Assembly (NCBI GenBank): GCA_964368185.1
Contig: CAYJAA010000001.1
Span: 13,959-67,924 of the forward strand
From: an uncultured Lachnospiraceae bacterium
GTDB taxonomy: Bacteria > Bacillota > Clostridia > Eubacteriales > Anaerofustaceae
Direction of reading: 5' to 3'
DNA length: 53,966 bases
Of this stretch, positions 12,186 through 42,060 are shown piece by piece. The translations under genes and the position numbers were made by a program. The stretch's first letter is position 1. Every line of letters begins with the position of its first letter. Under the pieces are notes generated by a model. That model was not told the DNA's origin. It saw nothing but the letters and a program-made list of their open reading frames with translations, and searched no databases.

Positions 12186-15213
<3,028 letters not shown>

Positions 15214-15228
15214 GAAAGGTAGAATAAG

Positions 15229-17691
15229 ATGTCAAATAAAGATATGATAAATCATGGCAAAATAGAAAAAAGAGACATTGTTGATGAAATGCAAACATGT
15301 TATATAGACTATGCCATGAGTGTTATAGTAGGTAGAGCCCTTCCTGATGTAAGAGATGGGCTAAAGCCTGTACATAGAAGAATCCTTTATTCAATGGAGG
15401 AGCTTGGAATTAAAAGTACAGGACAATATAGAAAAAGTGCTCGTATTGTTGGGGATGTTATGGGTAAGTATCACCCTCACGGTGATAGTGCTATTTATGA
15501 TGCTATGGTAAGACTTGCTCAAGATTTTTCCATTAGATACCCTCTTGTAAACGGTCATGGAAACTTTGGTTCTATTGATGGAGACAGAGCGGCGGCTATG
15601 CGTTACACTGAAGCTAGAATGACAAAAATGACAACTCAAATGCTTAGAGATATTGGTAAAGATACCGTTGATTTTGTCTCTAACTTTGATGATACTCTAA
15701 AGGAACCTAGCGTTCTACCTAGTAGATTCCCTAACCTTTTAGTAAATGGATCTAGTGGTATCGCTGTAGGTATGGCTACAAATATTCCTCCTCACAATTT
15801 AGGAGAAGTTATTGATGCAATTATTGCTTTGATTGACTCTAATATGGAGGCGAGCGTTTCTCAGTTACTTAAATATGTAAAAGGCCCAGACTTCCCAACT
15901 GGTGGGATTATCATGGGAAGGTCTGGAATTCACTCTGCTTATACTACTGGAAGAGGTAGAATAAAGCTTAGAGCAAAAAGTAATATTGAAAGTATTACAA
16001 AAACAAGAGATAGAATTGTTATTACAGAAATTCCATATATGGTTAATAAATCTAAACTTGTTGAAAAGATTGCTGATCTTGTAAAAGATAAAAAAGTAGT
16101 TGGAATTTCAGATATTAGAGATGAGTCTGATAGAAATGGAATTAGAATTGCTATTGACTTAAGAAAAGATATTAATGCAAATATCATCTTAAATCAGCTT
16201 TATAAATATACTCAGCTACAAGACACTTTCGGGGTTATTATGTTAGCCCTTGTAAACAATCAACCAAAAGTACTTAACTTAAAAGAAGTTTTAGAAAACT
16301 ATATTGGCCACCAAAAAGAAATCGTAGTTAGAAGAACTACCTTTGATCTTAACAAAGCAAAGGCAAGAGCTCATATATTAGAAGGGCTTTTAATTGCTCT
16401 TGATAATATTGATGAAATCATTAAGATTATTAGAAGTTCTTATGATAATGCTGAAGAAAAATTAATGGCTAGATTTGACCTTTCTGAGATACAAGCAAAA
16501 GCTATTGTAGACATGAGACTTAGAAGACTGCAAGGCTTAGAAAGAGAAAAGCTAGAAGGGGAATATAAAGAGTTATTAGCCCTTATTAATAAGCTAGAAG
16601 AAATCTTAGCAAATGAACATTTAGTAATGAATATTATTAAAGAAGAAATTCTTGAACTGAAAGCTAGCTTTAATGATGAGAGAAGAACTTCTTTTGAAGA
16701 AGATGATGAAGACTTCCACATGGAAGACTTAATTGAAGAAGAAGATATTGTTGTTACAATTACTCATGTAGGGTATGTAAAAAGAGTTTCTGCAAATACT
16801 TATAAAGCACAAAAAAGAGGTGGAAAAGGAATAACTGCCCTATCTACTAGAGATAACGACTTTGTAAAACACTTATTTACTACAACAACACATCATTATA
16901 TTATGTTCTTTACAAACAAAGGTAAAGTTTATAGGCTTAAAGGATACGAGCTACCAGACGCTTCAAGAACAGCTAAAGGGACTGCTATTGTAAACTTATT
17001 AGCTCTAGACCCAGGAGAAAAAATAACTGCTGTAATTCCAATTAAAGAGTTTAAAGATGATGAATACTTAGTAATGGCAACAAAAGAAGGTATCTTTAAG
17101 AAAACTGCTGTTAGTGAATATGATTCTTCTAGAAAAAATGGAATTATTGGAATTAACTTAAATGAAGAAGATGAATTAATTGGCGTTAATTTAACTGATG
17201 GAAAACAAAACATTATCCTTGGAACTAGTAATGGGGTTGCTATTAAATTTAACGAAGAAGAAGTAAGACCTATTGGTAGAGTTTCTAAAGGGGTTAGAGG
17301 AATCAACCTTAGGGATGATGATCTTGTTATTGGAATGGATTTAGCAAAAGATGATGACTTTGTTTTATCTGTGACAGAAAATGGTTTTGGTAAACTTACA
17401 AAAACTTCCCTATATCCAACTCAAGGTAGAGCTGGAAGAGGGGTAGTAAACTATAAGACTACAAAGAAAACTGGAAATGTATCAGGAATGTGTGTAATCA
17501 ATAAAGAACACCACGATATTATGTTAATTAGCATTGATGGCACAGTAATTAGAATTGATACAGGAGACATTTCCCAAATGGGAAGAAGTACTTCAGGGGT
17601 TAAGGTTATGAGACTAGAAGAAGATGTAAACATCGCAACTATCGCTAAAGTGCCTTCTGCTCCAGAAGAAGAACTAGATTTAGATGAATAA
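15229..17691 (+). CDS. gyrA: DNA gyrase subunit A
   Basis: QRDR-region motif [10 protein letters not shown], active-site AAMRYTE, and an acidic C-terminal tail. Confidence 0.98.
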
Positions 17692-27876: not shown

Positions 27877-28554
27877 TTAATTATTTGCCAGCAGATGTTT
27901 CAATTCAGAAATACTTATATATTTATCATTAAGTTTTCTGTGCAACATAGCATGGCAGTTAGGGCAAACAGGGATTAAGTCGGTTTCAGGATTAACAGAG
28001 TATTCCTCATTGATTTCACTTATAGCAACTATATGGTGTACATGGATAAAACCTTTTCCAATTTCACCATAAATATCTTCAAAGTTCATACCACATATAT
28101 GACAATAACAACCATAGTGATCAATGCATTTTTTTCTAGCTTCAGCACTTCGTTCATATTTATTAACGGTAACTGTTACTTTTGCACCTTCAATGCAACT
28201 ATCTGTTTGGTCAGAATCAGGAAATACCTCAGCACTTAAATTATTAAAATAATTGTCACTTAGAAATGTAAAAAACTGTGGCAATGCAGCACGGATATAA
28301 CCTTTTTCTAAATAAGATGACTGTCGTCTATCCTTTAAAAAAGTTAATAAGCTTTTGTAAAAATCACTATTTAAATCATATACGTAATCACTTATTTCTT
28401 TTATTCTATGTAGACTTTTTTCATTTATAATTGTTATCTCTAAAAATTCACAAAGATACTTAATAGCATTATGGTATGAGCGAGCTTTGCCAGATTCTAC
28501 CCCAGGAGTAGTGCAGAATATTTCGAATTCTTCTAACATAATTTTCATTTGCAT
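27877..28554 (-). CDS. HNH endonuclease with an uncharacterised N-terminal domain (restriction-like)
   Basis: The C-terminal CxxC...HVHHI....N......DLIPVCPNCHAMLH is a classical HNH/His-Me finger. The start could be the ATG at 28554 or at 28548. Confidence 0.8.
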   Translation of the reverse strand: MQMKIMLEEFEIFCTTPGVESGKARSYHNAIKYLCEFLEITIINEKSLHRIKEISDYVYDLNSDFYKSLLTFLKDRRQSSYLEKGYIRAALPQFFTFLSDNYFNNLSAEVFPDSDQTDSCIEGAKVTVTVNKYERSAEARKKCIDHYGCYCHICGMNFEDIYGEIGKGFIHVHHIVAISEINEEYSVNPETDLIPVCPNCHAMLHRKLNDKYISISELKHLLANN

Positions 28555-28930: not shown

Positions 28931-28959
28931 TTGACAAGATTGAAATCTTATGTTAAAGT
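28931..28959 (+). promoter_or_regulatory. Candidate promoter of the type I R-M operon (TTGACA-17-TAAAGT)
   Basis: A consensus -35 at 28931..28936 and a weak -10 at 28954..28959. The spacer contains the inverted repeat aagatt-ga-aatctt. Confidence 0.35.
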
Positions 28960-29009
28960 AAATTTAAAGAAATATTTCTCGATTTGCAATGTTATTTTTT
29001 TACCACAAC

Positions 29010-29615
29010 ATGAAAGAGGTGAGCGCTATTAAATTAAGTGAATTATGTGAGATAAGGACAGGCCTTATTCTCTCAAGAAAACAAGCTAAATCTAAAACCC
29101 AGTTTTACTATAAACAACTTACCCTTAAATCTATTGAAGACACTGGATATATTGCTATAAACTTTACTGAAGATTTTTATAGCAAAGAAGAGTTAAATCA
29201 AGACTACTTAACAAAAAAAAGGGATATCATCGTTAGGCTGTCCACCCCTTATACTGCTGTTTTAATAGATGAAGATAGAGAAAACTTGGTAATCCCTACT
29301 CATTTTGCAGTTGTAAAATGCAAGAAAAAGATAATCACTCCAAAGTATTTATATTGGTTTTTAAACTCTAAAATCGTAAAAAAAGAATATCTTAAAAACA
29401 ACACTAGTAATATGATAGGAGCAATTAGACCTTTATTTATAGGAGAGCTTGAAATTAAACTACCAACAATGGACAAGCAAGAAAAAATAGGAGAATTTAA
29501 TATTCTTGCTAAAAAAGAAGAATATTTACTAACTAAATTAGAAAAAGAAAAATCTAAATATACAAGTTTCATACTTGAAAATCTTTATATGAAAGGAAAT
29601 AAAAATGACAACTAA
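29010..29615 (+). CDS. hsdS: Half-size type I specificity subunit (single target-recognition domain)
   Basis: About 200 aa: one TRD followed by a conserved helical tail (LPTMDKQEKIGEFNILAKKEEYLLTKLEKEK). It overlaps the hsdM start by 11 nt. The start is uncertain: ATG 28989, ATG 29010, or an in-frame ATT at 29028 behind AAAGAGGTG. Confidence 0.7.
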   Translation: MKEVSAIKLSELCEIRTGLILSRKQAKSKTQFYYKQLTLKSIEDTGYIAINFTEDFYSKEELNQDYLTKKRDIIVRLSTPYTAVLIDEDRENLVIPTHFAVVKCKKKIITPKYLYWFLNSKIVKKEYLKNNTSNMIGAIRPLFIGELEIKLPTMDKQEKIGEFNILAKKEEYLLTKLEKEKSKYTSFILENLYMKGNKNDN

Positions 29616-31134
29616 AACAGATATCCAAAACACTCTTTGGAAAGCTTGTGATAGCTTTCGTGGAAAAATCGACAGTTCAAGATATAAAGACTATATCCTA
29701 TCTATGCTTTTTGTAAAATACCTTAGCGATGTAAACAAAGAGAGAAAAGCTGAATATGAAAAGCAATATAATGGAGACGCCGATAGAATAAAAAGAGCTA
29801 TGAGCCGTGAGCGATTTGCCCTTGACGAAGTTTCAACTTTTGACTATTTATATGAAAATAGAGGGGACAGTGAAATAGGACAAAAAATAAACATCGCCCT
29901 TTCCCATATTGAAGAACACAACAGCGGCAAACTTCGCAATGTTTTTAGAGCTATTGACTTTAACTCTCAAGTTGATTTTGGTGAGGCTCGTGAAAAAAAT
30001 GCTGTTCTTAAAAATTTACTCTCTGATTTTTACGAGCTTGACTTAAGCCCTTCTAACCTAGATAGTAGCGATATAATCGGGGACGCTTATGAATATATGA
30101 TAGCCAACTTTGCCTCTGATGCAGGGAAAAAGGGTGGAGAATTTTTCACCCCAAGCACTGTTTCAACCCTTGTTGCAAAACTTGTTAAACCAAAGGAAAA
30201 TGACAGGATTTACGACCCGACTTGTGGGAGTGGTGGGCTACTTCTAAAGGCTTATAAAGAGGCTCCAAGCAAAAAAGTTGCCATATATGGACAGGAGAAA
30301 AATGCACAAACTTGGGCGCTATGTACTATGAATATGTTTTTACATAACATTGATGATGCAAACATTAAACAAGGGGACACCCTTGCTAACCCTCAGCATT
30401 TAGAAAATGATGAACTTATGAAATTTCAAGTAATCTGTGCTAATCCTCCTTTCTCATTCGATAAGTGGGACAGTGGGTTTTTAGGGGAAGTTACAACCGA
30501 CAGTAAGAAAAAAGCAAAAATGGAAGCAAGCCTTGACCCTTATAAAAGATTTTCTATGGGAGTTCCTCCCTCTTCTAAGGGAGACTATGCTTTTGTTTTA
30601 CACATGCTTGCTAGCTTAGATGCAAATGGTGGAAGAATGGCTGTTGTTCTTCCTCATGGGGTTCTTTTTAGAGGAGCCAGTGAGGGAAAAATTCGTAGGG
30701 AAATTATTGACATGAACTTACTAGACGCAGTTATCGGCCTACCATCTAATTTATTTTTTGGAACAGGGATTCCTGCTTGTATTTTAGTCTTTAAGAAAAA
30801 TCGCCCTAACCGTGACATACTTTTTATTGACGCAAGTGGAGAGGGAAACTTTGAAAAGGGTAAAAATCAAAATGTACTTCGCATAGAAGATATTAAAAAA
30901 ATAGTCTCTACATATGAAAGCCGTGAGACTTTAGAAAAATATAGCTATAAGGCTACACATGAAGAGATAAAAGAAAATGATTATAACCTAAATATTCCAC
31001 GATATGTGGATACTTTTGAGGAAGAAGAAATGGTGGATATTGAGGTGGTTAAGGAAAGTATTAAGAATATAGAAAAAGAGCTTAAAGAAGTGCAAGAGAA
31101 GATGAAAAAATATTTGGAGGATATGGGGGTGTAA
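29605..31134 (+). CDS. hsdM: Type I restriction-modification N6-adenine DNA methyltransferase
   Basis: The HsdM N-terminal domain (LWKACDSFRG), SAM motif DPTCGSGGLL, and catalytic NPPF. Confidence 0.95.
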   Translation: MTTKTDIQNTLWKACDSFRGKIDSSRYKDYILSMLFVKYLSDVNKERKAEYEKQYNGDADRIKRAMSRERFALDEVSTFDYLYENRGDSEIGQKINIALSHIEEHNSGKLRNVFRAIDFNSQVDFGEAREKNAVLKNLLSDFYELDLSPSNLDSSDIIGDAYEYMIANFASDAGKKGGEFFTPSTVSTLVAKLVKPKENDRIYDPTCGSGGLLLKAYKEAPSKKVAIYGQEKNAQTWALCTMNMFLHNIDDANIKQGDTLANPQHLENDELMKFQVICANPPFSFDKWDSGFLGEVTTDSKKKAKMEASLDPYKRFSMGVPPSSKGDYAFVLHMLASLDANGGRMAVVLPHGVLFRGASEGKIRREIIDMNLLDAVIGLPSNLFFGTGIPACILVFKKNRPNRDILFIDASGEGNFEKGKNQNVLRIEDIKKIVSTYESRETLEKYSYKATHEEIKENDYNLNIPRYVDTFEEEEMVDIEVVKESIKNIEKELKEVQEKMKKYLEDMGV

Positions 31135-31142
31135 ATGGTATT

Positions 31143-32123
31143 ATGTTTGAACTATATTCACAAAGGATAAAAAATCAAGAGGGTGAGTCAGAGGTTTTCA
31201 TTTATAATGAATTTTCCAGCAAGTTTAGAAATCAATTTATTTACTGCGTGAAAGATTGTTATAATAGTATGGAGGGGAAAATAGATAAAATTAATAGAAA
31301 TATTGACTTTTTTCCTGATGCATATGAAATAGGCTTTCTTTGCCTTGATAGCATGGCTGAGCTTATATATAGCATATTTAAAAGGGAAAAAGGACTAGGA
31401 GATGAAGTCGGTTCCGATTGGGATGACTTAACAAAGTACATACAAGAATGTGATAATACTGACTTTTTAGATATGATGGATTTAATAGCACATTTGATTT
31501 TTAATAAATCAAAAAATATATTTTCTGACATATTTGGCGAAAACATATTTAAAAATCACTTTAGTGGATATATAGATGATGGAATTAACCATATCAACCT
31601 TAGACTAAAAGAAAATTTACTAGGCTACGAAATAATAGATGGAAAAGTTATAGCTAAAACCAACACAGTAACCCACGAACATATTATAAAACCAGCATTA
31701 AAACTATTGATAGATGAAGATTTTCGAGGAGCTGAAGAAGAATATTTATTAGCATTTGAAAACTTTAAAAATGGCGAAAATGAAAATGCTATAATTAATG
31801 GAAATAAAGCCTTTGAAAGTGTCCTAAAGACTATTTGTGGAAAGCTAGAATATCAATACGACCCTTCAAAAGCCTCGGCTAAAAAATTACTAAACATTTT
31901 AGAGGAAAATAATTTTTTCCCAGGTTATTTAAAAAACCATTTATCATCTTTAATAAATTCTCTTGAAACTGGAGCTCCAGTGATAAGAAATAAAGTAGCA
32001 GGACATGGACAAGGGGAAAATGTCCGAAAAGTGGGAGATGAATATGTTGAATATGTTTTAAATTTAACTGCCACCAACATATTATTTCTCTACAAAATCT
32101 ATAAAGGCAAGGTGGCTAAATGA
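31143..32123 (+). CDS. Abi-like protein with a C-terminal HEPN-type motif (AbiJ / Abi_C-like), embedded between hsdM and hsdS
   Basis: The N-terminus MFELYSQRIKNQ...VFIYNEF resembles what I remember of the AbiJ-NTD4 / STM4504-type N-termini. The C-terminal PVIRNKVAGHGQG gives R282-x5-H288 (31986..32006), which fits the Rx4-6H HEPN signature. Its stop overlaps the hsdS start (ATGA). Confidence 0.6.
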   Translation: MFELYSQRIKNQEGESEVFIYNEFSSKFRNQFIYCVKDCYNSMEGKIDKINRNIDFFPDAYEIGFLCLDSMAELIYSIFKREKGLGDEVGSDWDDLTKYIQECDNTDFLDMMDLIAHLIFNKSKNIFSDIFGENIFKNHFSGYIDDGINHINLRLKENLLGYEIIDGKVIAKTNTVTHEHIIKPALKLLIDEDFRGAEEEYLLAFENFKNGENENAIINGNKAFESVLKTICGKLEYQYDPSKASAKKLLNILEENNFFPGYLKNHLSSLINSLETGAPVIRNKVAGHGQGENVRKVGDEYVEYVLNLTATNILFLYKIYKGKVAK

Positions 32124-33316
32124 ACAATGAAATAAAAGAGCGAATCACCAAAATACAAAATGGGGAAATCCCTAAGGGGTATAAAAAAACGAAAGTTGGA
32201 ATTGTGCCTAGTGAGTGGGAAGTTAAGAAGTTGGGGGAAGTTGCAAAAACTTATTCTGGTGGAACACCAAACACTAATAATAAAGAATATTATTTAGGAA
32301 CCATTCCTTTTATTCGCTCCGCTGAAATTGATAAAAAACGGACTGAATTATTCATTTCTAAACAAGGCTTAAACAGCTCATCTGCAAAAGAAGTAATTGT
32401 AGGCGACTTGTTATACGCCCTATATGGCGCTAATAGCGGAGAATGTGCTATATCCAAACAATGTGGAGCAATAAACCAAGCTGTATTATGTATCAAAAGC
32501 TCCGAAAATGTTAAATATTTATACTACTTCCTTTCAAGCAATAAAATAAAAATTATTAACACTTATTTACAAGGAGGGCAAGGCAATTTATCTGCACAAA
32601 TAATGAAAAACATCAAACTCCCTCTCCCACCCCTACCCGAACAAAACACAATAGCCGAAATACTAAGTACTGAGGATAAAGTAATTGAGCTTAAAGAAAA
32701 GCTTATCGAAAAAAAAGAAGCTCAAAAAAAATACTTAATGCAAAATCTCCTAACAGGTAAAAAAAGGCTTACAGGGTTTCGTGGGGAGTGGAATAAGGTG
32801 AGGTTGGGGGAGGTTTGTGAGATTATTAAAGGCTCTCAACTTAATAAAAATACTCTTTCAGAATATGATAAATACTATGTTCTAAATGGTGGCATTACTC
32901 CGTCAGGATATACAGACAATTGGAATGTAGAAAAAAATACTATTTCAATCAGCGAAGGTGGAAATTCATGTGGATTTGTAAATTATAATACGGAAAATTT
33001 TTGGAGTGGTGGACATTGTTACACATTGCAAGATTTAAGTATTAACATGGAAAATTTATTTTTATATTTTACTCTTAAATATAAGCAACAAACTTTAATG
33101 GAACTAAGAGTTGGGTCGGGCTTACCAAATATTCAAAAAAAATCTTTATTGAATTTCAAAGTCAACCTCCCACCCCTTGACGAACAAAAGACAATCGCTG
33201 AAATTTTATCCACTGCTAATAAAGAAATTGAACTTTTAAAAGCTGATTTAGAAAAAGAAAAAGAAAAGAAAAAAGCATTAATGCAGTTGTTGCTAACTGG
33301 GATTGTGAGGGTGTAA
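32120..33316 (+). CDS. hsdS: Full-length type I specificity subunit (two TRDs)
   Basis: Two TRDs, each followed by a conserved repeat (LPLPPLPEQNTIAEILST... and LPPLDEQKTIAEILST...). Confidence 0.93.
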   Translation: MNNEIKERITKIQNGEIPKGYKKTKVGIVPSEWEVKKLGEVAKTYSGGTPNTNNKEYYLGTIPFIRSAEIDKKRTELFISKQGLNSSSAKEVIVGDLLYALYGANSGECAISKQCGAINQAVLCIKSSENVKYLYYFLSSNKIKIINTYLQGGQGNLSAQIMKNIKLPLPPLPEQNTIAEILSTEDKVIELKEKLIEKKEAQKKYLMQNLLTGKKRLTGFRGEWNKVRLGEVCEIIKGSQLNKNTLSEYDKYYVLNGGITPSGYTDNWNVEKNTISISEGGNSCGFVNYNTENFWSGGHCYTLQDLSINMENLFLYFTLKYKQQTLMELRVGSGLPNIQKKSLLNFKVNLPPLDEQKTIAEILSTANKEIELLKADLEKEKEKKKALMQLLLTGIVRV

Positions 33317-33319
33317 AGT

Positions 33320-34165
33320 ATGAGTACTAATAAGAAAAAATTCAACACCCTTGCTAATAAAGATGAACTGCTGGAATTTCTATATACTAAAGGGAAAAAC
33401 CATAATGAGTATCATCATTATACCACTTTTGACAATGCTATTAAAATAATCAAAAATAAATCATTTTTTCTAACCCGTGGCAATTCTACAAGTATGAATG
33501 ACCAACATGAACCAACCATCAATGAAGATAGTAATATATGGGATAAAACCTACATTGGCAGTTTTGCATTTGGAGGAAATGAAAATATGGCAATGTGGGG
33601 TTTGTACGGTTTACCAAAAGAAAATGCTGTACGAATAACAATTCCGAAAAAAGCTATGGAATCTTGGTTTGATAGCATAAACGAAATTCACGGAATTACT
33701 ATAGAAAATAATGTTCCTGAATATAAGAGTGTAAATAACAAATTTGATAAATATTTATCTGATATAGTGTATATTGACACTATACAAGATCCGAATTTAT
33801 CAAAACTTTATTGGAATGATAACTCCTTGAGGATTAAACCATCAGAAAGCATAACCTCCATTGCAGATGAATTAGATATGATAGGGTTTATTAAAAATTT
33901 TGCTTGGAAATATGAAAATGAAGTTCGCCTTCTTATTCGCACGGAACCTAATACAAAGCATGAAAAAATTAGTGTTAACATACCCGAAGAAGTTACTAAG
34001 AATATATCTATTACAGCTGGACCATGTTTTAACGGCGATATAGGCGAAAGATTGAAAGAAAACCAATGCGATAACAAAGTATCTGAAAGTATATTTAAGG
34101 GCTTAGTGAACTACAAAATTTTATGCAGTATGTGCTTGCATGAAAATTTTATAAATAAGGAGTAA
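33320..34165 (+). CDS. DUF2971-like protein embedded between hsdS and hsdR
   Basis: Motifs as I remember them for DUF2971: YHHYTTFDNAIKIIKNKSFFLTRGNSTSMNDQHE, GSFAF..NENMAMWGLYG, and WKYENEVRLL. The gaps are 3 nt after hsdS and 4 nt before hsdR. Confidence 0.6.
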   Translation: MSTNKKKFNTLANKDELLEFLYTKGKNHNEYHHYTTFDNAIKIIKNKSFFLTRGNSTSMNDQHEPTINEDSNIWDKTYIGSFAFGGNENMAMWGLYGLPKENAVRITIPKKAMESWFDSINEIHGITIENNVPEYKSVNNKFDKYLSDIVYIDTIQDPNLSKLYWNDNSLRIKPSESITSIADELDMIGFIKNFAWKYENEVRLLIRTEPNTKHEKISVNIPEEVTKNISITAGPCFNGDIGERLKENQCDNKVSESIFKGLVNYKILCSMCLHENFINKE

Positions 34166-34169
34166 AATA

Positions 34170-37100
34170 ATGCTAAAAGACCTATACTTAGAAAAAAACA
34201 TCAGCCAAACCCCAGCCATAGAGCTACTTAAATCTATGGGATACATATATATTCCCCCAGAGGAGGCCCTAAGAAAGCGAGGGAGTAAATACGATGTTAT
34301 CTTAAAAGATATTCTTCGCTCACAGCTTAAAAAGCTAAATACATACACTTTTGGAGGAGAGAAAAAGGAGTTTTCCCCTGGTAATATTGAGCGTGCTATA
34401 GAAGATATAAACCTACCCCTAAATGACGGGCTTATTAAGTGTAGTGAAAAAATATTTAATATGCTCCTACTTGGTAATAGCTACTTAGAACTTCTAGGAG
34501 ATGGGAAAAGCCTTAGCTTTAATCTAAAATATATTGACTGGGATAATTTTGATAATAATGTATTTCATGTAACTGAAGAATTTTCTGTAGAAAGTCTTGA
34601 TAAAGAACATAACGCAAGGCCGGATATAGTGTTATTTATTAATGGAATTCCCTTTGGGGTTATTGAGTGTAAAACTCCACAAATTTCAGTAGAGCAAGGG
34701 ATAGAACAAATGGTTAGGAACCAAAAAACAGAGTGGATCCCTCAACTTTTTAAATTCACTCAAATTCTTGTGTCTACAAATAAAAACACTGTAAAATATG
34801 CTACCACAGGAACACCAAAAAAGTTTTGGTCTATTTGGCGAGAAGAAGACAAGAGTTTTTTAGAAAATCAACTTAATATCCATATTAAAAATAGACAAAA
34901 GACTATTCAAGATGAAAATATTATTTCACTTTTCTCAAAGGATAGAGTGAAAGACTTAATAAAATATTTTGTTTTATACGATGCTAATATTAAGAAAATT
35001 TGCAGATACCAACAATACTTTGCAATCAAAGAAGCAATGAAAACTATCACTACTTTTGACAAAAAAGGAAATCGCAAAAGTGGTGTTGTTTGGCATACCC
35101 AAGGAAGTGGAAAAAGCCTTACTATGGTTATGTTAGCAAAATTATTATTACAAGAGTTATCAAAACAAAACCCTAAAGTTATTATCATAACCGATAGGAA
35201 AGAACTAGATAACCAAATCGCAAAAACCTTTTCCCACACAAGATTAAATCCAGCAAAGGCAGCAAGTGGCAAACACTTAGTAGAGCTTATAGATAGCCAT
35301 AAAGCAGATGTTATTACTACGATAATTAATAAATTTAATACCGCTGAAAAAATGGACAGTAAAAATTTATCAAAGGATATATTTGTTCTTGTTGATGAAA
35401 GCCACCGTTCAAACTATGGTGGCCTTGCAACAAAAATGCGAACAGTTTTCCCAAATGCCTGCTATATAGGTTTTACAGGAACACCCCTTATGAAAAAAGA
35501 AAAAAACACAATGGCAAAGTTTGGGGACTTAATCCATAAATACACTATCAAAGATGGCGTAGAAGATGGAGCGATTGTTCCCTTAATTTATGAGGGAAAA
35601 TTTGTAGATCAAAATGTTGATGAAGAAAATATAGACTTATGGTTTAAACAAGTAACAAAAAGACTTAACGAAAAAGAAAGAAAAGATTTAAAAGACAAGT
35701 GGAGTAGCATTAGGCGCCTAACTTCAACTGATTCAAGAATTAAAAGAATAGCTCTTGATATTGATGAGCATTTTACTGGGGGTTATAAAAATACAGGCTT
35801 TAAAGCCATGCTTGCAACCAACTTTAAAAAAGATGCCGTTAGGTATTTAGAGTGTTTTGAAACTTTTTCTGATTTAACTTGTGCTGTTATAATCTCTCCC
35901 CCAGATATCAGGGAGGGGGCTGAAAATATTGATGATGAAATAGACGATAAAGTTCGTAAATACTGGGATAAGATGATAAAAGCTTATGGAGATGGGGACA
36001 AATATGAAGAGGCTATCAAAAATAAATTTTTAGATGGAGAAATTGATATTTTAATAGTTTGTAGCAAACTTTTAACAGGCTTTGATGCCCCAAGATGTCA
36101 AGTTTTATACATAGACAAAGAATTAAAAGAACATGGACTTCTTCAAGCTATTGCCAGAACAAATAGACTTTATGAGGGGAAAGATTATGGACTAATCGTT
36201 GATTATAGAGGGCTTATTACAAGGCTTAATGATGCTATGGATACTTATACTGGAGCAGGTCTTGAAAACTTTGAAGGTGGAGATTTAAAGGGAACGATTG
36301 TGGATATAATCTCTGTTATAGCTAGCTTAAGAGAGGCAAATAGCAATCTTTGTCAGCTATTTATCACATTAAAAAATAGTCAAGATACCGAAGAAGTAGA
36401 AAGTTATTTAGCTGATGAAAAAATTAGAGAAAGCTTTTATGATTTTGTATGCGCTTTAGGTAAGCATTTATCTATGACAATGAATTCAGAAGTTGTTTAT
36501 GAAACTATTGATAGAAAAGAGCTAAAAACTTATCAAGATAATTTTATTTTTTATTCAAAAGTTAGAAGAAGTGTTAAAGTTAGATATCATGATGCAATAG
36601 ACAATAATGAGTATGAACCCTTAATGCAAAATCTTCTTGATACTCATTTATCCGTAGCAGGACTTAATCAAATCACAAAGCCTGTTGACATATTAAATAA
36701 AGATGAATTTGAAAAAGAAATTGAAGAGCTTACCTCCCTTAAGGGAAAAGCCGATGCAATCACTAGCAGTATGACAAAGGCAATTAGTGAAAGGCGTGAT
36801 GAAAATCCTGCTTATTATGATAGCTTTTCTGAAAAAATAAAGTCCGCATTAGAAGAGTATAAAGATAAAGTTATATCAGAAAGTGAATACCTTGCAAAAA
36901 TGAAGTCTATTCTTGCAGACTTTAGAGAAAATAAAACCGATATAACTTACCCTAGTGAAATAAAAAAGAATTTACACGCCCAAGCTTTCTACGGAGTTAT
37001 TTGCGCTATACTGGATAATGAAATTAATATAAATGATTATAGTGAGATTATAACTTATGCTACTATAGAAATTACAAAAATAATCGAAAAATACAACCAA

Positions 37101-37262
37101 GTAGACTGGTCGACTAATACTACAATCCATAAAAAAATAGCACAAGAAATAGATGACTTATTCTATGAAATAGAAAAAGAAAAAGCTTTAAAATTAACAT
37201 TTGATGCTATTGACATGATTATAGAAAATGTGAAAACCGTTGCTCTTAGGAGGTTTAAATGA
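34170..37262 (+). CDS. hsdR: Type I restriction enzyme R subunit (helicase-nuclease)
   Basis: An N-terminal PD-(D/E)xK-like region (RPDIVLFINGIPFGVIECK), Walker A TQGSGKSLTM, a DESHRS box, and motif VI QAIARTNR. Confidence 0.95.
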   Translation: MLKDLYLEKNISQTPAIELLKSMGYIYIPPEEALRKRGSKYDVILKDILRSQLKKLNTYTFGGEKKEFSPGNIERAIEDINLPLNDGLIKCSEKIFNMLLLGNSYLELLGDGKSLSFNLKYIDWDNFDNNVFHVTEEFSVESLDKEHNARPDIVLFINGIPFGVIECKTPQISVEQGIEQMVRNQKTEWIPQLFKFTQILVSTNKNTVKYATTGTPKKFWSIWREEDKSFLENQLNIHIKNRQKTIQDENIISLFSKDRVKDLIKYFVLYDANIKKICRYQQYFAIKEAMKTITTFDKKGNRKSGVVWHTQGSGKSLTMVMLAKLLLQELSKQNPKVIIITDRKELDNQIAKTFSHTRLNPAKAASGKHLVELIDSHKADVITTIINKFNTAEKMDSKNLSKDIFVLVDESHRSNYGGLATKMRTVFPNACYIGFTGTPLMKKEKNTMAKFGDLIHKYTIKDGVEDGAIVPLIYEGKFVDQNVDEENIDLWFKQVTKRLNEKERKDLKDKWSSIRRLTSTDSRIKRIALDIDEHFTGGYKNTGFKAMLATNFKKDAVRYLECFETFSDLTCAVIISPPDIREGAENIDDEIDDKVRKYWDKMIKAYGDGDKYEEAIKNKFLDGEIDILIVCSKLLTGFDAPRCQVLYIDKELKEHGLLQAIARTNRLYEGKDYGLIVDYRGLITRLNDAMDTYTGAGLENFEGGDLKGTIVDIISVIASLREANSNLCQLFITLKNSQDTEEVESYLADEKIRESFYDFVCALGKHLSMTMNSEVVYETIDRKELKTYQDNFIFYSKVRRSVKVRYHDAIDNNEYEPLMQNLLDTHLSVAGLNQITKPVDILNKDEFEKEIEELTSLKGKADAITSSMTKAISERRDENPAYYDSFSEKIKSALEEYKDKVISESEYLAKMKSILADFRENKTDITYPSEIKKNLHAQAFYGVICAILDNEININDYSEIITYATIEITKIIEKYNQVDWSTNTTIHKKIAQEIDDLFYEIEKEKALKLTFDAIDMIIENVKTVALRRFK

Positions 37263-37993
37263 GTGAAACTTCTAAGAAAAAATACTTAAGCGTAGATAGC
37301 CGAGTTATTAAATATACACTAATTCAAAAAGATGTAAAAAATATTAACCTTAGAATAAAATCAAATGGGGAAATTTCTATTTCTGCAAATAAATCCGTCA
37401 GCCTAAGCCACATAGAAAATTTTATTAAAAATAAGTCTAGCTTTGTATTTAAACACTTAGATAAATTCGAAGATATGAAAAAATACACTCCTAGCAAAAA
37501 GAAGTACATAAGTGGGGAAAGCTTTTTACTTCTTGGAAAATCTTTACGCCTTAAAGTTTTAGTGTCTGAAAAAGAAAATGTGTATACTGATGGAGTTTAT
37601 CTTTTTTTAGAAGTTAAAAACAAAGGTGACTTTAAGAGAAAAGAAAAACTTATAAATACTTTCTTTGATGAAAAATGTAAAGAGTATTTTAAAGAAGTAG
37701 CAAATGATATTTATCCCATATTTAAAAAATACGACATAATCTACCCTATTATTAAAATCCGTTCTATGACATCAAGGTGGGGATCTTGTATTCCTTTAAA
37801 AAACCAAATCACACTTAACAAAAAACTTATTGAAGTGCCAAAAAATTCCATAGAATATGTTGTTCTACATGAATTTGTACACTTTATTCATCCAAATCAT
37901 TCAAAAAAGTTTTATAACTTCTTGACTATGCTTATGCCAGACTGGAAAGAGAGAAAAAGGGTTCTTGAAACTTATGCTTTTAGAGTGGAATAA
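37259..37993 (+). CDS. M48-family / DUF45 (YgjP-like) zinc metallopeptidase
   Basis: HEFVHFIHPNHSKKF is an HExxH motif in the typical YgjP context. Its ATG overlaps the hsdR stop (ATGA). Confidence 0.85.
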   Translation: MSETSKKKYLSVDSRVIKYTLIQKDVKNINLRIKSNGEISISANKSVSLSHIENFIKNKSSFVFKHLDKFEDMKKYTPSKKKYISGESFLLLGKSLRLKVLVSEKENVYTDGVYLFLEVKNKGDFKRKEKLINTFFDEKCKEYFKEVANDIYPIFKKYDIIYPIIKIRSMTSRWGSCIPLKNQITLNKKLIEVPKNSIEYVVLHEFVHFIHPNHSKKFYNFLTMLMPDWKERKRVLETYAFRVE

Positions 37994-38051: not shown

Positions 38052-39377
38052 GTGAAAGAAATCAAATGCCCAAAATGCGGGGAAGCTTTTACAGTTGATG
38101 AATCAGGATATATGGCAATTGTAAAACAAGTTAGAGATGTAGAGTTTCAAAAGGATTTAGAGGAAAGGCAAAGGCTTTTCACTGAGGCTAAGGAAAGTGA
38201 GCTTAACCTATTAAAGACAGAAGCTAAACATAATCTTGATAAAAGTCTTAGTCAGTCACAAGAAGAAATAAACAAACTAAAAGCTATTATTGAGGCCTCT
38301 AAAAGAACTAGTGATGGTGAGCTTGAAATAGCTAAAATAAAGGCTAAGGCTACTTTAGAAGAAAAATTGTCTGAATCAAAACAAGAAATAGAGCGCCTAA
38401 GGGGTGAAATTCAAAAATCTGAAATGGAAAAATCCCTTGCTATTAGTGAAGAATCTGCAAAAGGAAAGTCTGCTATTGCCAGTAAAGAACAGGAAATAAT
38501 GAAGCTAAAGTTGGAGGCTGAAAGTGTTCAGTCCTCTACAAAGCTAAAAATAAAAGTCCTTGAAGACTCCTATAAAGAAAAGCTTTTAGAAAAAGAAGAA
38601 CAAATTAGCTTTTATAAAGACCTAAAAGCAAGACAGTCCACTAAAATGCTTGGAGAAACTTTAGAACAGCACTGTGAGATAGCCTTTAATCAAATAAGGG
38701 CAACTGGCTTTAGAAGTGCGTACTTTGAAAAGGACAACGATGCAAGGAGCGGAAGCAAAGGGGACTATATTTTCAGGGAGCATACTGAGGGTGGTGTGGA
38801 GTTTATTTCTGTTATGTTTGAGATGAAAAACGAAATGGACACTACTGCTACCAAAAAGAAAAACGAAGACTTTTTAAAAGAGCTTGATAAAGATAGAAAT
38901 GAAAAAGGGTGTGAATATGCAGTGTTAGTTTCCCTTTTAGAATCAGACAACGAATATTATAATAGTGGTATTGTTGATATGTCTCACAGATACCCTAAAA
39001 TGTATGTTATTCGCCCACAATTTTTTATACCTATAATCACTCTTCTTAGAAACGCTGCATTAAACGCAGTAGAGTATAAAGAACAGCTCATTGAAGTTCG
39101 TAACCAAAACATCGATATTTCTAATTTTGAAAATGATATTATGGATTTTAAAAATAAATTTAGCTATAATTATGACTTAGCAAGTAGAAAGTTTCAAACT
39201 GCTATTAAAGAAATTGATGAGACTATTAAACATCTTGAAAAAACTAAAGCCGCCCTATTATCTTCTGAAAACAACTTAAGGCTTGCAAATGATAAAGCGC
39301 AAGATTTAACTATTAAAAAACTTACAAAAAACAACCCTACTATGAAAGAAAAGTTTGATGAGATAAAAGGAGAATAA
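38052..39377 (+). CDS. DUF2130-like protein: zinc ribbon, long coiled coil, and a PD-(D/E)xK-like C-terminal domain
   Basis: CPKCGEAF at the N-terminus, about 170 aa of E/K-rich heptads, then GDYIF...(17)...FEMKNE (D238, E257, K259; 38763..38828). GTG start behind AAGGAGGT. Confidence 0.7.
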
Positions 39378-39382
39378 ATGCA

Positions 39383-40102
39383 ATGAGTAATACGGCATAT
39401 CAAGATAAAAGTAAGACTATACTTATTAGTGCTAAAGAAGCTACTTATAAAAACAATAAACATTATTACTGTAAAAATAAAGAATGTTGTGCAATTTTAT
39501 ATCTTAGGAACAGTGATGGAATCAAATCAGCTCACTTTTGTGCTTATGCAAAGCATCCACACATACATGGTTGCTATGAAGGAATATCTAACTTTAAACT
39601 TGACAACTTTAAAGAGAATGAATTTAACTTTGATGAGTCAATAAATAATTTATCTAAAGACGGAAAAAGCACAGAAAAAAAGACCGCAACTGAGCTTCAA
39701 AAAAAAGAAACAGCTACTAGAAATTTGTCCGCTGATAGACCTTTAAAAAGCTTACGAGAAATATATTATATGTGTAAATCAAAAAAAATCAATGATAAAT
39801 ATTCAACTATAAAAATATCACATATGCTTGCAGATGAAAGAACTATGAAAATATATCAAGTATATGGACCAATAGGGGTTCGTATTGTTGAGTGCACTTA
39901 TATAGATCATGATTCTGAAAAAAATCAGATATTTATGGATTATTATGGAATGGAATTGACCCTTAATCTAAATAATCGTTTGTTTGAGGAAATAAATGAA
40001 AAATTACATATAAATAGAGAGCATAAAATTGCTATTTGTGGTGACTGGAGTGCTCGATCTGTTAGAATAACATCTAAAAGGCAGATTTATATTATAAAGT
40101 GA
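39383..40102 (+). CDS. Hypothetical protein with a Cys/His-rich N-terminal (zinc-ribbon-like) region
   Basis: YYCKNKECCAILYLRNSDGIKSAHFCAYAKHPHIHGC. It begins 5 nt after the DUF2130 stop, with AAAGGAGAA inside that gene's 3' end. I could not assign a family. Confidence 0.5.
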   Translation: MSNTAYQDKSKTILISAKEATYKNNKHYYCKNKECCAILYLRNSDGIKSAHFCAYAKHPHIHGCYEGISNFKLDNFKENEFNFDESINNLSKDGKSTEKKTATELQKKETATRNLSADRPLKSLREIYYMCKSKKINDKYSTIKISHMLADERTMKIYQVYGPIGVRIVECTYIDHDSEKNQIFMDYYGMELTLNLNNRLFEEINEKLHINREHKIAICGDWSARSVRITSKRQIYIIK

Positions 40103-40320
40103 GTGTGATGACAAATTGACAACATTTTTCTGTAATAATCCTAATAGATATGATAATACAGAGAAAAACAGTATTAGTTTACACGCTTTTTTGAATACAA
40201 TTTAAGTGCAATTTTTTATTTACGAAGAATAATAAGGTAGTAATTCTCATATAATAATATCATTACATTATTGAAGGTATTATATTTATGAGAAGTGCAA
40301 GCCGAACAGAAAGGATAGTT

Positions 40321-42060
40321 ATGAATATAAAACCTGTTGATAAAACAATAAGAGAACTTTTATTGTCAAGGAATCAATTTATTATACCACGTTTCCAAAG
40401 GGAATATTCTTGGGATAAGAAAAATTATAGCGAATTTCTTGAAGATATGGTGAAATGCCTAGAAATCAATGGTGGTAAAATATCACCTACTCAATATTTT
40501 ATTGGTACTATGCTTTTCGTTGGAGATAAAGACGAACTACAAAAACAACAACAGAGCATGGATGTAGTTGATGGACAACAAAGACTGACAACTATAACCA
40601 TATTGTTTTCTGCATTATCAGATATATTTAAAATCGAAAATGAAAAACTTCTAAGCGAACAACTTTTTAAATATATAATGACTACCGATGATAACGGAGA
40701 CCCTATACGAATATTAAAAAGCAAAACTCATTATCCTTTTTTTGCAGACTATATTCAATCAAGTGAGAAACTCGAACTTAATGATCCTTCAAGTGAAGAA
40801 GAGCAGTGTATAAAAAATACATATGATTTTTTTATAGAGATCTTAGCCGAAAATAAAATTAGACAGCTACTGCAAAAAGATTTTGGAACCGCCGACATCG
40901 ACCAATGTAGTTATATAGATATTTTAAAAGCTATAAGGGATCAAGTGCTTAATTGCACATTTGTATCAATATATACAAAAAACAAAAATCAAGCTAACAT
41001 GATTTTTGAAATACTAAATGCAAAGGGAAAAAAATTATCTAGTATCGATTTGATTAAAAATAAGATATTTGAATTGCTTGATAAAAAAGAACCATCAGAT
41101 TTTGCCACAATTACGTGGCAGGAGATTAAAGCAATCTTGAATGATGAAAATTGTGATGTTGGATTTGCAACATTTTATCGTCACTTTTGGCTTTCGAGAT
41201 ATAAAAAGTCATCAGATGCTAAATTATATGATGATTTTGTTAGCAAAATAAAAAAGAATAAAGAGGGGTATATTGAATTTTTAAAACAATTATTAAATGA
41301 TGCTAATTTATATGCAAAAATTGTAAACCCTCAAAGACAACACTTCAATAATAGAAAAGAGTATTTTGGTGTGGTTCAATCATTAAATGCTCTCTCAAAT
41401 ACATTTAACATATCACAATCTAGAATTGTTATATTAGCATTAATGAATGTAAAGTCTAAGAAGTTAATATCATTAACTGATTTTAAAAAATGCCTGTATT
41501 TTATTGAAAATTTTCATTTGGCATATAATGCGATAGGTGGTTTACCAACGAATAGACTAGAATCGATTTACTCAAAGCGTGCCATTGCGTTAAATAACGC
41601 TGATAATAAAATTGCTGTAAAAATGCAAATTTCAGAATTAAAGAAAAGTTTATCTGATATTTACATTTCATATCCTGATTTTGAAGAAAAGTTCAAACTA
41701 TTAACTTACACAAAAAAATCTGTTGCTTCAAATACTAGAACAAAATATGTTATACAAAAAATTAATTCATACTTTGAGCAGAGTGAAATTTTCTCTGATG
41801 ATTTAAGCATAGAACATATTTCTCCTGAAACAGAAAATGCAAATAATATTAATATTGGGAATTTAATTGCGTTAGAACTTGCAATAAATAAAGACGCAGA
41901 TATGTTAGGTTATTCAAAAAAGAGATCAGTATACAAGAGCTCTAAATATACTTGGGTTAATGATTTCATCAGCAAACATAAAACATGGGATCAAAAAGAT
42001 TACAATGATAGAGCCAGAGATTTAGCAAGATTATACTATCAAGAAATATTAAAAAAATAA
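40321..42060 (+). CDS. DUF262/DUF1524 (GmrSD-like) type IV restriction-type nuclease
   Basis: N-terminal IPRFQREYSW and DGQQRLTT (ParB/DUF262-like). C-terminal LSIEHISPE....IGNLIALE..INK (His-Me finger/DUF1524-like). I moved the start to the ATG at 40321, behind GAAAGGA. Confidence 0.85.
   Translation: MNIKPVDKTIRELLLSRNQFIIPRFQREYSWDKKNYSEFLEDMVKCLEINGGKISPTQYFIGTMLFVGDKDELQKQQQSMDVVDGQQRLTTITILFSALSDIFKIENEKLLSEQLFKYIMTTDDNGDPIRILKSKTHYPFFADYIQSSEKLELNDPSSEEEQCIKNTYDFFIEILAENKIRQLLQKDFGTADIDQCSYIDILKAIRDQVLNCTFVSIYTKNKNQANMIFEILNAKGKKLSSIDLIKNKIFELLDKKEPSDFATITWQEIKAILNDENCDVGFATFYRHFWLSRYKKSSDAKLYDDFVSKIKKNKEGYIEFLKQLLNDANLYAKIVNPQRQHFNNRKEYFGVVQSLNALSNTFNISQSRIVILALMNVKSKKLISLTDFKKCLYFIENFHLAYNAIGGLPTNRLESIYSKRAIALNNADNKIAVKMQISELKKSLSDIYISYPDFEEKFKLLTYTKKSVASNTRTKYVIQKINSYFEQSEIFSDDLSIEHISPETENANNINIGNLIALELAINKDADMLGYSKKRSVYKSSKYTWVNDFISKHKTWDQKDYNDRARDLARLYYQEILKK

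Follow-up and report, generated by a model that had tools for sequence, protein, structure and literature searches.

Why would a gene for a putative ribonuclease (RNase) be placed between the methyltransferase and specificity genes of a Type I restriction-modification (RM) system? The question is raised by an abiJ-like gene in a 53,966-nucleotide stretch of DNA from an uncultured Lachnospiraceae bacterium (contig CAYJAA010000001.1, positions 13,959 to 67,924), which was analysed at its full length and is called the window below. The Type I system around the gene is complete (HsdM, HsdS, HsdR), and the abiJ-like gene occupies the junction of hsdM and hsdS (M/S). A previous inspection of the letters, here the sequence-only reading, took the product for a latent HEPN/Abi_C-like RNase tied to the methylase and specificity subunits. 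Our analysis confirmed the product as a two-domain member of the STM4504/CBY_0614 family, built from an AbiJ_NTD4 domain and a DUF7014/Abi_C HEPN domain. Regarding its function, we consider it probable that the protein is an autonomous AbiJ-family defence effector carried as cargo in the Type I operon.

The open reading frame (ORF) was confirmed with an ATG start, and it contains the following features, the two motifs being scored in alignment A1 (40 homologs, 40-53 % identity).

31143..32123, + strand: abiJ-like gene, STM4504/CBY_0614 family, 326 aa (ORF, Pfam, NCBIfam, alignment).
31149..31697, + strand: AbiJ_NTD4 domain, residues 3-185 on profile positions 1-150 of 152 (Pfam PF18863, 60.1 bits against a gathering threshold of 34).
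31710..32099, + strand: C-terminal HEPN domain of DUF7014/Abi_C type, residues 190-319 (Pfam PF22809, 93.8 bits against a gathering threshold of 27).
31815..31829, + strand: E225-x3-K229, the second HEPN motif, Ex3[KR], invariant in A1 and found in 151/151 relatives.
31986..32006, + strand: R282-N283-x4-H288, the Rx4-6H catalytic motif followed by GQG, invariant in A1 and retained in 149/151 relatives.
32120..32123, + strand: ATGA overlap of the abiJ-like stop and the hsdS start (sequence).

The protein begins with MFELYSQRIKNQEGE, and the choice of start codon agrees with the homologs, whose N-termini match this one residue for residue in A1. The NCBIfam model NF046078 (STM4504/CBY_0614) matched residues 21-317 over profile positions 2-280 of 281 with 175.4 bits, above the curated cutoff of 150. 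The likeness to AbiJ-NTD4 and STM4504-type proteins noted in the sequence-only reading was thus borne out by PF18863 and NF046078, and its HEPN identity is one on which Pfam, NCBIfam, motif conservation and fold agree. The Abi_C label was more difficult. The older model PF14355.11 scored 12.5 bits on the C-terminal domain (E=0.16), below its threshold of 24 bits, but the newer Pfam release lists PF14355.13 (Abi_C) for the abiJ-like protein and its homologs, at E<=1e-5 for the homologs P0003 and P0058. When the C-terminal domains of 24 relatives were compared with Pfam, all 24 matched DUF7014, 14 Abi_C (PF14355.11, best 7.3e-6), seven Adenyl_transf, six HEPN and three Ymh, so that the secondary matches are mostly to HEPN-type families. 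Because the relatives' domains match Abi_C and the newer Pfam lists Abi_C, we regard DUF7014, as far as profiles can tell, as the Abi_C/HEPN domain of the STM4504/CBY_0614-type subfamily.

The putative active site is the motif RNKVAGH, with the R282 codon at 31986-31988 and the H288 codon at 32004-32006, exactly where the sequence-only reading had placed these residues. A bare Rx4-6H pattern is not significant alone and was dropped as evidence, since 41 % of the shuffled versions of the protein contain it; RNx3-5HG is found in 0.27 % of the shuffles. The motif is judged real because it is conserved across homologs, not because of the bare pattern match. Residues R282, N283, G287, H288, G289, Q290 and G291 are invariant in A1, and so are E225, S226 and K229. 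The wider counts given above refer to the patterns RNx4HG and [FL]ESxx[KR] in the 151 full-length relatives, which come from 164 loci of genomes and metagenomes. Where the Rx4-6H motif is intact, HEPN domains are endoribonucleases, and Ex3[KR] is the second motif of many HEPN families, common though not universal (PMC3710099).

This conservation bears on the idea that the HEPN domain could be a non-catalytic RNA-binding regulator, which tunes the expression of hsdS and hsdR and, for example, delays restriction in a new host. Such a role would suit a gene placed immediately upstream of hsdS, with translational coupling between the two, and some HEPN domains, such as MtlR, are indeed non-catalytic binders (PMC3710099). 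However, the non-catalytic HEPN families have lost Rx4-6H and here both catalytic motifs are invariant; moreover, most relatives have no RM genes to control. We therefore regard a regulatory role as highly improbable.

The predicted structure leads to the same family. The full-length model had a mean predicted local distance difference test score (pLDDT) of 83 and its best matches in the PDB were HEPN domains. For the C-terminal domain modelled separately (pLDDT 85.5, predicted template modelling score 0.81), the top 20 PDB matches from Foldseek were all HEPN proteins, among them 2q00, 1o3u, 2hsb, 3o10, 1wol, 4nqf, 1ufb and HepT, with probabilities of 0.91-1.00 and template modelling scores of 0.58-0.72 over about 130 aligned columns (0.41-0.72 as the wider range). 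The comparisons with profile models and with AlphaFold/Foldseek that the sequence-only reading had proposed thus returned matches, and the HEPN identity held. In the model, R282-x5-H288 is placed in the loop preceding the last helix (residues 299-325). In the AlphaFold2 model, the AbiJ_NTD4 domain consists mainly of helices, and residues 162-171 form a conserved beta-hairpin. The domain contains an insertion of about 18 residues (residues ~55-75, 31305-31370; pLDDT 61-67), which is missing from all 39 of the 39 aligned homologs. Pfam detected no ATPase domain in the protein, the N-terminus being AbiJ_NTD4. A search of PDB chain sequences with the full protein gave no hit at E<=10, the profile of the C-terminal domain found chance-level matches alone in the PDB (a herpes tegument protein, TPR designs, TcdB), and Foldseek against viral predicted structures gave nothing meaningful.

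How widespread is this protein, and does it depend on Type I systems? In a profile search of 1.84 billion representatives, the threshold of E<=1e-3 was reached by 3,308 clusters and that of E<=1e-30 by 1,083. The matches came from Bacillota, Cyanobacteria, Proteobacteria, Planctomycetes and some Archaea; judged from them, the abiJ-like family is of moderate size and has a wide phylogenetic spread. No relative found exceeds 53 % identity to the window protein, which represents its own cluster at 50 % identity. The family also gave a full-length match to the phage protein family phrog_20794 (4.5e-48). To describe the genomic context, ORFs were called in 164 related loci (labelled L001 and so on) and the Type I genes were marked by profiles and phmmer. 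Of these, 90 loci have 3 kb or more of sequence on each flank, and in 72 of the 90 (about 80 %) no Type I gene is nearby. The remaining 18 are linked to Type I genes in the order hsdM-AbiJ-hsdS (8 loci), hsdM-hsdS-AbiJ followed by hsdR (7), hsdR-hsdS-AbiJ-hsdM (1) or in partial form (2). In two loci of the clade found between hsdS and hsdR (S/R), HsdR itself has an N-terminal DUF4145, another HEPN family (L125, 9560-12856; L130, 7932-11240), so that two different HEPN domains are encoded there.

The neighbours of the copies free of RM genes are integrases, AbiH, reverse transcriptases, other methylases and a deoxyribosyltransferase-like protein; these copies keep the usual company of mobile defence islands. 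We favour an autonomous effector because 72 of the 90 relatives are found without Type I genes and because the family has a match among phage proteins. Since some close relatives are located on elements bearing an integrase and a relaxase, and since HEPN proteins are frequent as toxins of toxin-antitoxin systems (PMC3710099), we also considered an addiction module, i.e. a toxin inhibited in cis that mainly stabilises the operon or the mobile island by post-segregational killing. In our case, neither a separate antitoxin gene nor a repeat RNA is present beside the abiJ-like gene, and the island of the window lies in the chromosome next to guaBA, where the adjacent genes examined include no integrase. 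The tested Abi_C relatives, moreover, confer phage defence. An addiction module thus seems quite improbable, although we find it easier to imagine than a non-catalytic regulator.

As an alternative view of the question, we inspected how the gene is distributed over Type I operons. The M/S-embedded proteins, that of the window among them, group into one clade when joined in a neighbour-joining tree. The RM systems which contain them belong to two lineages, lineage A (window, L001, L003, L004, L086, L088, L092) and lineage B (L002, L017, L020, L081), with about 51 % identity between the two in HsdM and about 36-37 % in HsdR. The AbiJ proteins reach 66-68 % (L001 against L002 and L081) and 66 % (L020 against L088) across the lineages; within lineage A, HsdM proteins are 70-85 % identical and AbiJ proteins just 43-68 %. 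Because the AbiJ identities cut across the split of HsdM and HsdR, the abiJ-like gene has, from these comparisons of protein sequences, apparently moved between Type I operons, and it diverges fast. Co-inheritance of the gene with its own RM system was rejected, as the AbiJ tree is incongruent with the HsdM and HsdR trees.

The places that the gene takes are also open to other genes. Elsewhere, RhuM, Bro-N or a trypsin-like protease is found in the M/S slot; the S/R slot is taken by a DSPc phosphatase or DUF2513 and, in the window, by DUF2971. We see the M/S junction as a cargo slot because unrelated genes share these slots and because of the incongruence of the trees. In several loci, a RhuM-family or Bro-N-domain gene is located directly upstream of the AbiJ homolog (L001, 6977-7984; L086, 5945-6958; L027, 6967-8001; L002, 7126-7989; L003, 7202-7945; L081, 7157-7999), and in L027 this arrangement occurs in a locus where no Type I genes were detected, which hints at a recurrent pairing of RhuM/Bro-N with AbiJ.

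At the downstream junction, the stop codon TGA of the abiJ-like gene (32121-32123) overlaps the ATG of hsdS (32120-32122), and the same 4-nt ATGA overlap is shared by L001, L002, L004, L085 and L086. In 8 of the 12 M-AbiJ-S loci, counting the window, hsdS begins no more than 24 nt from the end of the abiJ gene, and several of these have ATGA. Upstream, an 8-nt gap separates the abiJ-like ATG (31143) from the stop codon TAA of hsdM (end at 31134); a G-rich stretch lies 13 nt upstream of the ATG. The sequence-only reading had the gene translationally coupled on both sides, which describes the downstream ATGA but not the upstream gap, where no overlap with hsdM exists. Its proposal that synthesis is tied stoichiometrically to HsdM and HsdS, with the implied PrrC-like dependence on the RM complex, goes further than the data, as the tight spacing shows co-expression only. 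It had also contrasted the M/S junction with the S/R junction used by PrrC. This position is true of the clade of the window and not of the family, as another clade lies between hsdS and hsdR and one locus has the order R-S-AbiJ-M. The M/S junction was accordingly rejected as a family-wide trait, the other clades being at S/R or S/M.

These junctions are the basis of the strongest competing explanation, a guardian resembling PrrC. The RNase would be bound and silenced by HsdM2S (or R2M2S) through NTD4 and freed once the complex is put out of action or dislodged by a phage anti-restriction protein, and owing to the coupling into hsdS no toxin would be produced unless its inhibitor is produced as well. 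The location inside a Type I operon with the ATGA overlap into hsdS agrees with such a guardian, as does the monophyly of the M/S-embedded relatives, which stay beside hsdS in two Type I lineages despite horizontal exchange. Other clades of the family are Type I-embedded as well, giving the 18 of 90 loci mentioned above, and there is a precedent in PrrC/EcoprrI (PMC3710099, PMC12707154), the latent RNase behind restriction whose HEPN gene is likewise embedded in an hsdMSR operon (Type Ic). PrrC, however, has an ABC-ATPase N-domain and lies between hsdS and hsdR, whereas the window protein has NTD4, lies at the M/S junction and lacks the PrrC-type ABC-ATPase regulatory domain. PrrC is almost exclusively RM-embedded, whereas about 20 % of the sampled members of the window family are RM-linked; with about 80 % of the relatives having no Type I system nearby, the fold and NTD4 need no Hsd partners. 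The regulation of PrrC by Hsd proteins is proven and for the window protein it is hypothetical. The same slot is, moreover, taken by unrelated cargo, and the escape mutants of AbiJ and SadR indicate a phage recombination protein as the cue, not anti-restriction.

We consider a guardian of this kind unlikely, and we are equally doubtful that the M/S clade is a second, architecturally different RM guardian, in which NTD4 docks to HsdS/HsdM in place of the ATPase module of PrrC. If the latter were true, the overlap next to hsdS would guarantee the inhibitor together with the toxin, and phage anti-restriction proteins would release a non-specific HEPN RNase. The divergence of the clade (43-68 %, against 70-85 % for HsdM) and its exchange between lineages would then reflect an arms race with phage inhibitors.

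As an autonomous cargo effector, the protein could work as follows. The C-terminal Abi_C/DUF7014 HEPN domain would be an endoribonuclease with an active site composed of R282-N283-x4-H288 and E225-x3-K229, and the AbiJ-NTD4 domain would most likely sense a signal and restrain the RNase. The abiJ-like gene would be on the same transcript as the Type I system; with the tight packing and the stop/start overlap, the protein would thus be made whenever the RM system is made and would move with it. The RM complex would form the first layer, cutting incoming unmodified DNA. The second layer would be directed at RNA: when a phage gets past restriction, a phage-derived cue would free the RNase, which would degrade RNA and bring the cell to arrest or death. 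The operon would contribute co-expression and co-transfer, and the M/S junction would be a permissive cargo slot and not a sign of physical dependence on HsdM/HsdS. The domain identity, the conserved motifs, the fold, the packing of the operon and the distribution of the relatives are observed; we infer the RNase activity, the latency, the trigger and the abortive outcome.

Several points weigh against this scheme. A single clade that keeps its place just upstream of hsdS across two Type I lineages shows more specificity than chance hitch-hiking would give, which agrees with some functional tie to HsdS/HsdM. The context statistics are based on longest-ORF approximations in the related loci, the loci were sampled by a ranking on their similarity to the protein of the window, and the neighbour-joining tree carries no support values. 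Regarding the structure, the best E-value of Foldseek was 7e-3 and none reached 1e-3 or below, and the catalytic loop is the one low-confidence segment of both models (pLDDT <50). Finally, the RNase activity of the members of the NTD4 subfamily is itself predicted by analogy.

The published systems allow the scheme to be placed more closely. The architecture of AbiJ-NTD4 followed by AbiJ-HEPN was defined on CBY_0614 from Clostridium butyricum (Anantharaman et al. 2013, PMC3710099). The window protein shares this two-domain architecture of the STM4504/CBY_0614 family over its full length, above the curated cutoff, but it differs from the known members in its identity of 53 % or less, its own cluster, the N-terminal insertion of about 18 residues and its membership of an NTD4-bearing clade that is RM-embedded. 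The same survey linked at least 16 HEPN clades, AbiJ included, to RM operons and proposed multi-pronged defence; the AbiJ proteins that it found commoner in RM operons were those lacking the N-terminal domain (PMC3710099).

The closest experimental case is SadR, an Abi_C RNase of Staphylococcus aureus (2026), which degrades single-stranded as well as total RNA and requires R225, N226 and H232 for both RNase activity and phage defence (PMC13590631). Like the window protein, SadR has an Abi_C-type HEPN domain with an RN...H motif. It differs in its size of 266 aa, in its motif RNEYGDAH with one extra spacer residue, and in being encoded by a stand-alone gene near rlmH/SCCmec, outside RM operons. 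NTD4 was present in 3 of the 2,815 Abi_C proteins of that study (PMC13590631). The prototype of the Abi_C/AbiJ HEPN proteins is AbiJ (Abi-859) of Lactococcus lactis, a single-gene defence of abortive-infection type; it is plasmid-borne and stand-alone, and its likeness to the window protein rests on the HEPN part. The mechanism of AbiJ is uncharacterised, and the escape mutations of both AbiJ and SadR map to a phage single-stranded-DNA-annealing protein.

Genes embedded in defence operons have also been collected systematically by Payne et al. 2024 (bioRxiv 10.1101/2024.01.29.577857), who applied "guilt by embedding" to Type I RM, BREX and DISARM and released models of candidates. In PADLOC, where the PDC entries are predictions, the abiJ-like protein gave a weak and partial match to PDC-S32, a model with no curated cutoff (28.5 bits, E=3e-7, residues 4-270), and its DUF2971-like neighbour a weak match to PDC-S31. 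The accessible parts of the text and supplements of Payne et al. 2024 contain no description of PDC-S31 or PDC-S32.

Regarding the rest of the operon, its seven genes follow each other in the order half-hsdS, hsdM, abiJ-like gene, hsdS, DUF2971, hsdR and ygjP, with a spacing that ranges from an 11-nt overlap to an 8-nt gap.

28931..28959, + strand: possible operon promoter, sigma-70-like TTGACA-17-TAAAGT with TG, the best site, 30 nt upstream of half-hsdS.
28989..29615, + strand: half-size hsdS, 208 aa, with one target-recognition domain (Methylase_S, 30.6 bits; PADLOC Specificity_I, 3.6e-16).
29605..31134, + strand: hsdM, Type I methyltransferase subunit (Pfam HsdM_N and N6_Mtase, 1.3e-106).
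32120..33316, + strand: full-length hsdS with two target-recognition domains (Pfam Methylase_S in two stretches, 3.8e-60).
33320..34165, + strand: DUF2971-like cargo gene, 281 aa, in the S/R slot (DUF2971, 21.6 bits, cutoff 22; PADLOC PDC-S31, 2.2e-5).
34170..37262, + strand: hsdR, restriction subunit (Pfam HSDR_N, SWI2_SNF2, T1R_D3-like, T1RH-like_C).
37259..37993, + strand: YgjP-like metallopeptidase, the last gene of the operon (Pfam PF01863, 185.9 bits).

The scan for promoters and terminators performed no better than on shuffled sequences (41 promoter-like sites against 43.5) and is uninformative on an internal promoter. The half-size hsdS overlaps the hsdM start by 11 nt and is found in the same position in L001, L003, L004, L085, L086 and L088; it may give the Type I system a second, palindromic specificity. 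It is not shufflon-like, sharing no inverted or long direct repeats with the full hsdS. More generally, no flanking direct or inverted repeats, as signs of a recent insertion or of an hsdS shufflon, were found across 28.5-34.2 kb. The DUF2971-like gene occupies the position of PrrC (S/R) and has weak matches to PDC-S31 and phrog_1762. It is present in none of the related operons examined, where a DSPc phosphatase or DUF2513 is found instead. The YgjP-like gene overlaps the hsdR stop by 4 nt and comes after hsdR in all complete M-AbiJ-S operons of the two lineages (L001-L004, L017, L020, L081, L086, L088), and it appears to be a fixed component of such Type I operons.

The operon forms the central part of a defence island in the chromosome, adjoining guaB/guaA. 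On one side it is flanked by an HNH protein that matches Type IV weakly (27877-28554, - strand) and on the other side (38052-42060, + strand) by a DUF2130 protein, a 239-aa protein with no Pfam match (39383-40102) and a GmrSD Type IV restriction enzyme (40288-42060). No integrase was present among the adjacent genes examined beside the operon. The source DNA has about 30 % GC, and the closest relatives are largely from Bacillota or Clostridia. The genes recF, gyrB and gyrA lie within 12186-17691 of the window and the GC skew changes its sign near 24.4 kb, between a fakA-like gene and guaB, so the island may be close to a switch of strand bias such as a replication origin.

Much of the setting of this gene has already been published, namely the linkage of HEPN and RM genes (2013), guilt by embedding (2024) and the RNase activity of Abi_C (SadR, 2026), and the window protein is a divergent addition to the known AbiJ/Abi_C family of HEPN "suicide" RNases. 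Three aspects are modestly new. The RM-embedded clade bears NTD4, unlike the AbiJ proteins without this domain that were mainly tied to RM in 2013, and it keeps to the M/S junction next to hsdS although RM lineages exchange it. The third is that DUF7014 corresponds to Abi_C; as the census contains NTD4 in so few proteins, the NTD4 subfamily is probably undercounted in Abi_C censuses. The fixed place of the clade beside hsdS makes it a concrete candidate for an RM-guard system other than PrrC. If the abiJ-like protein is an autonomous cargo effector, as we think probable, the locus would be a further example of defence genes nested in defence operons.

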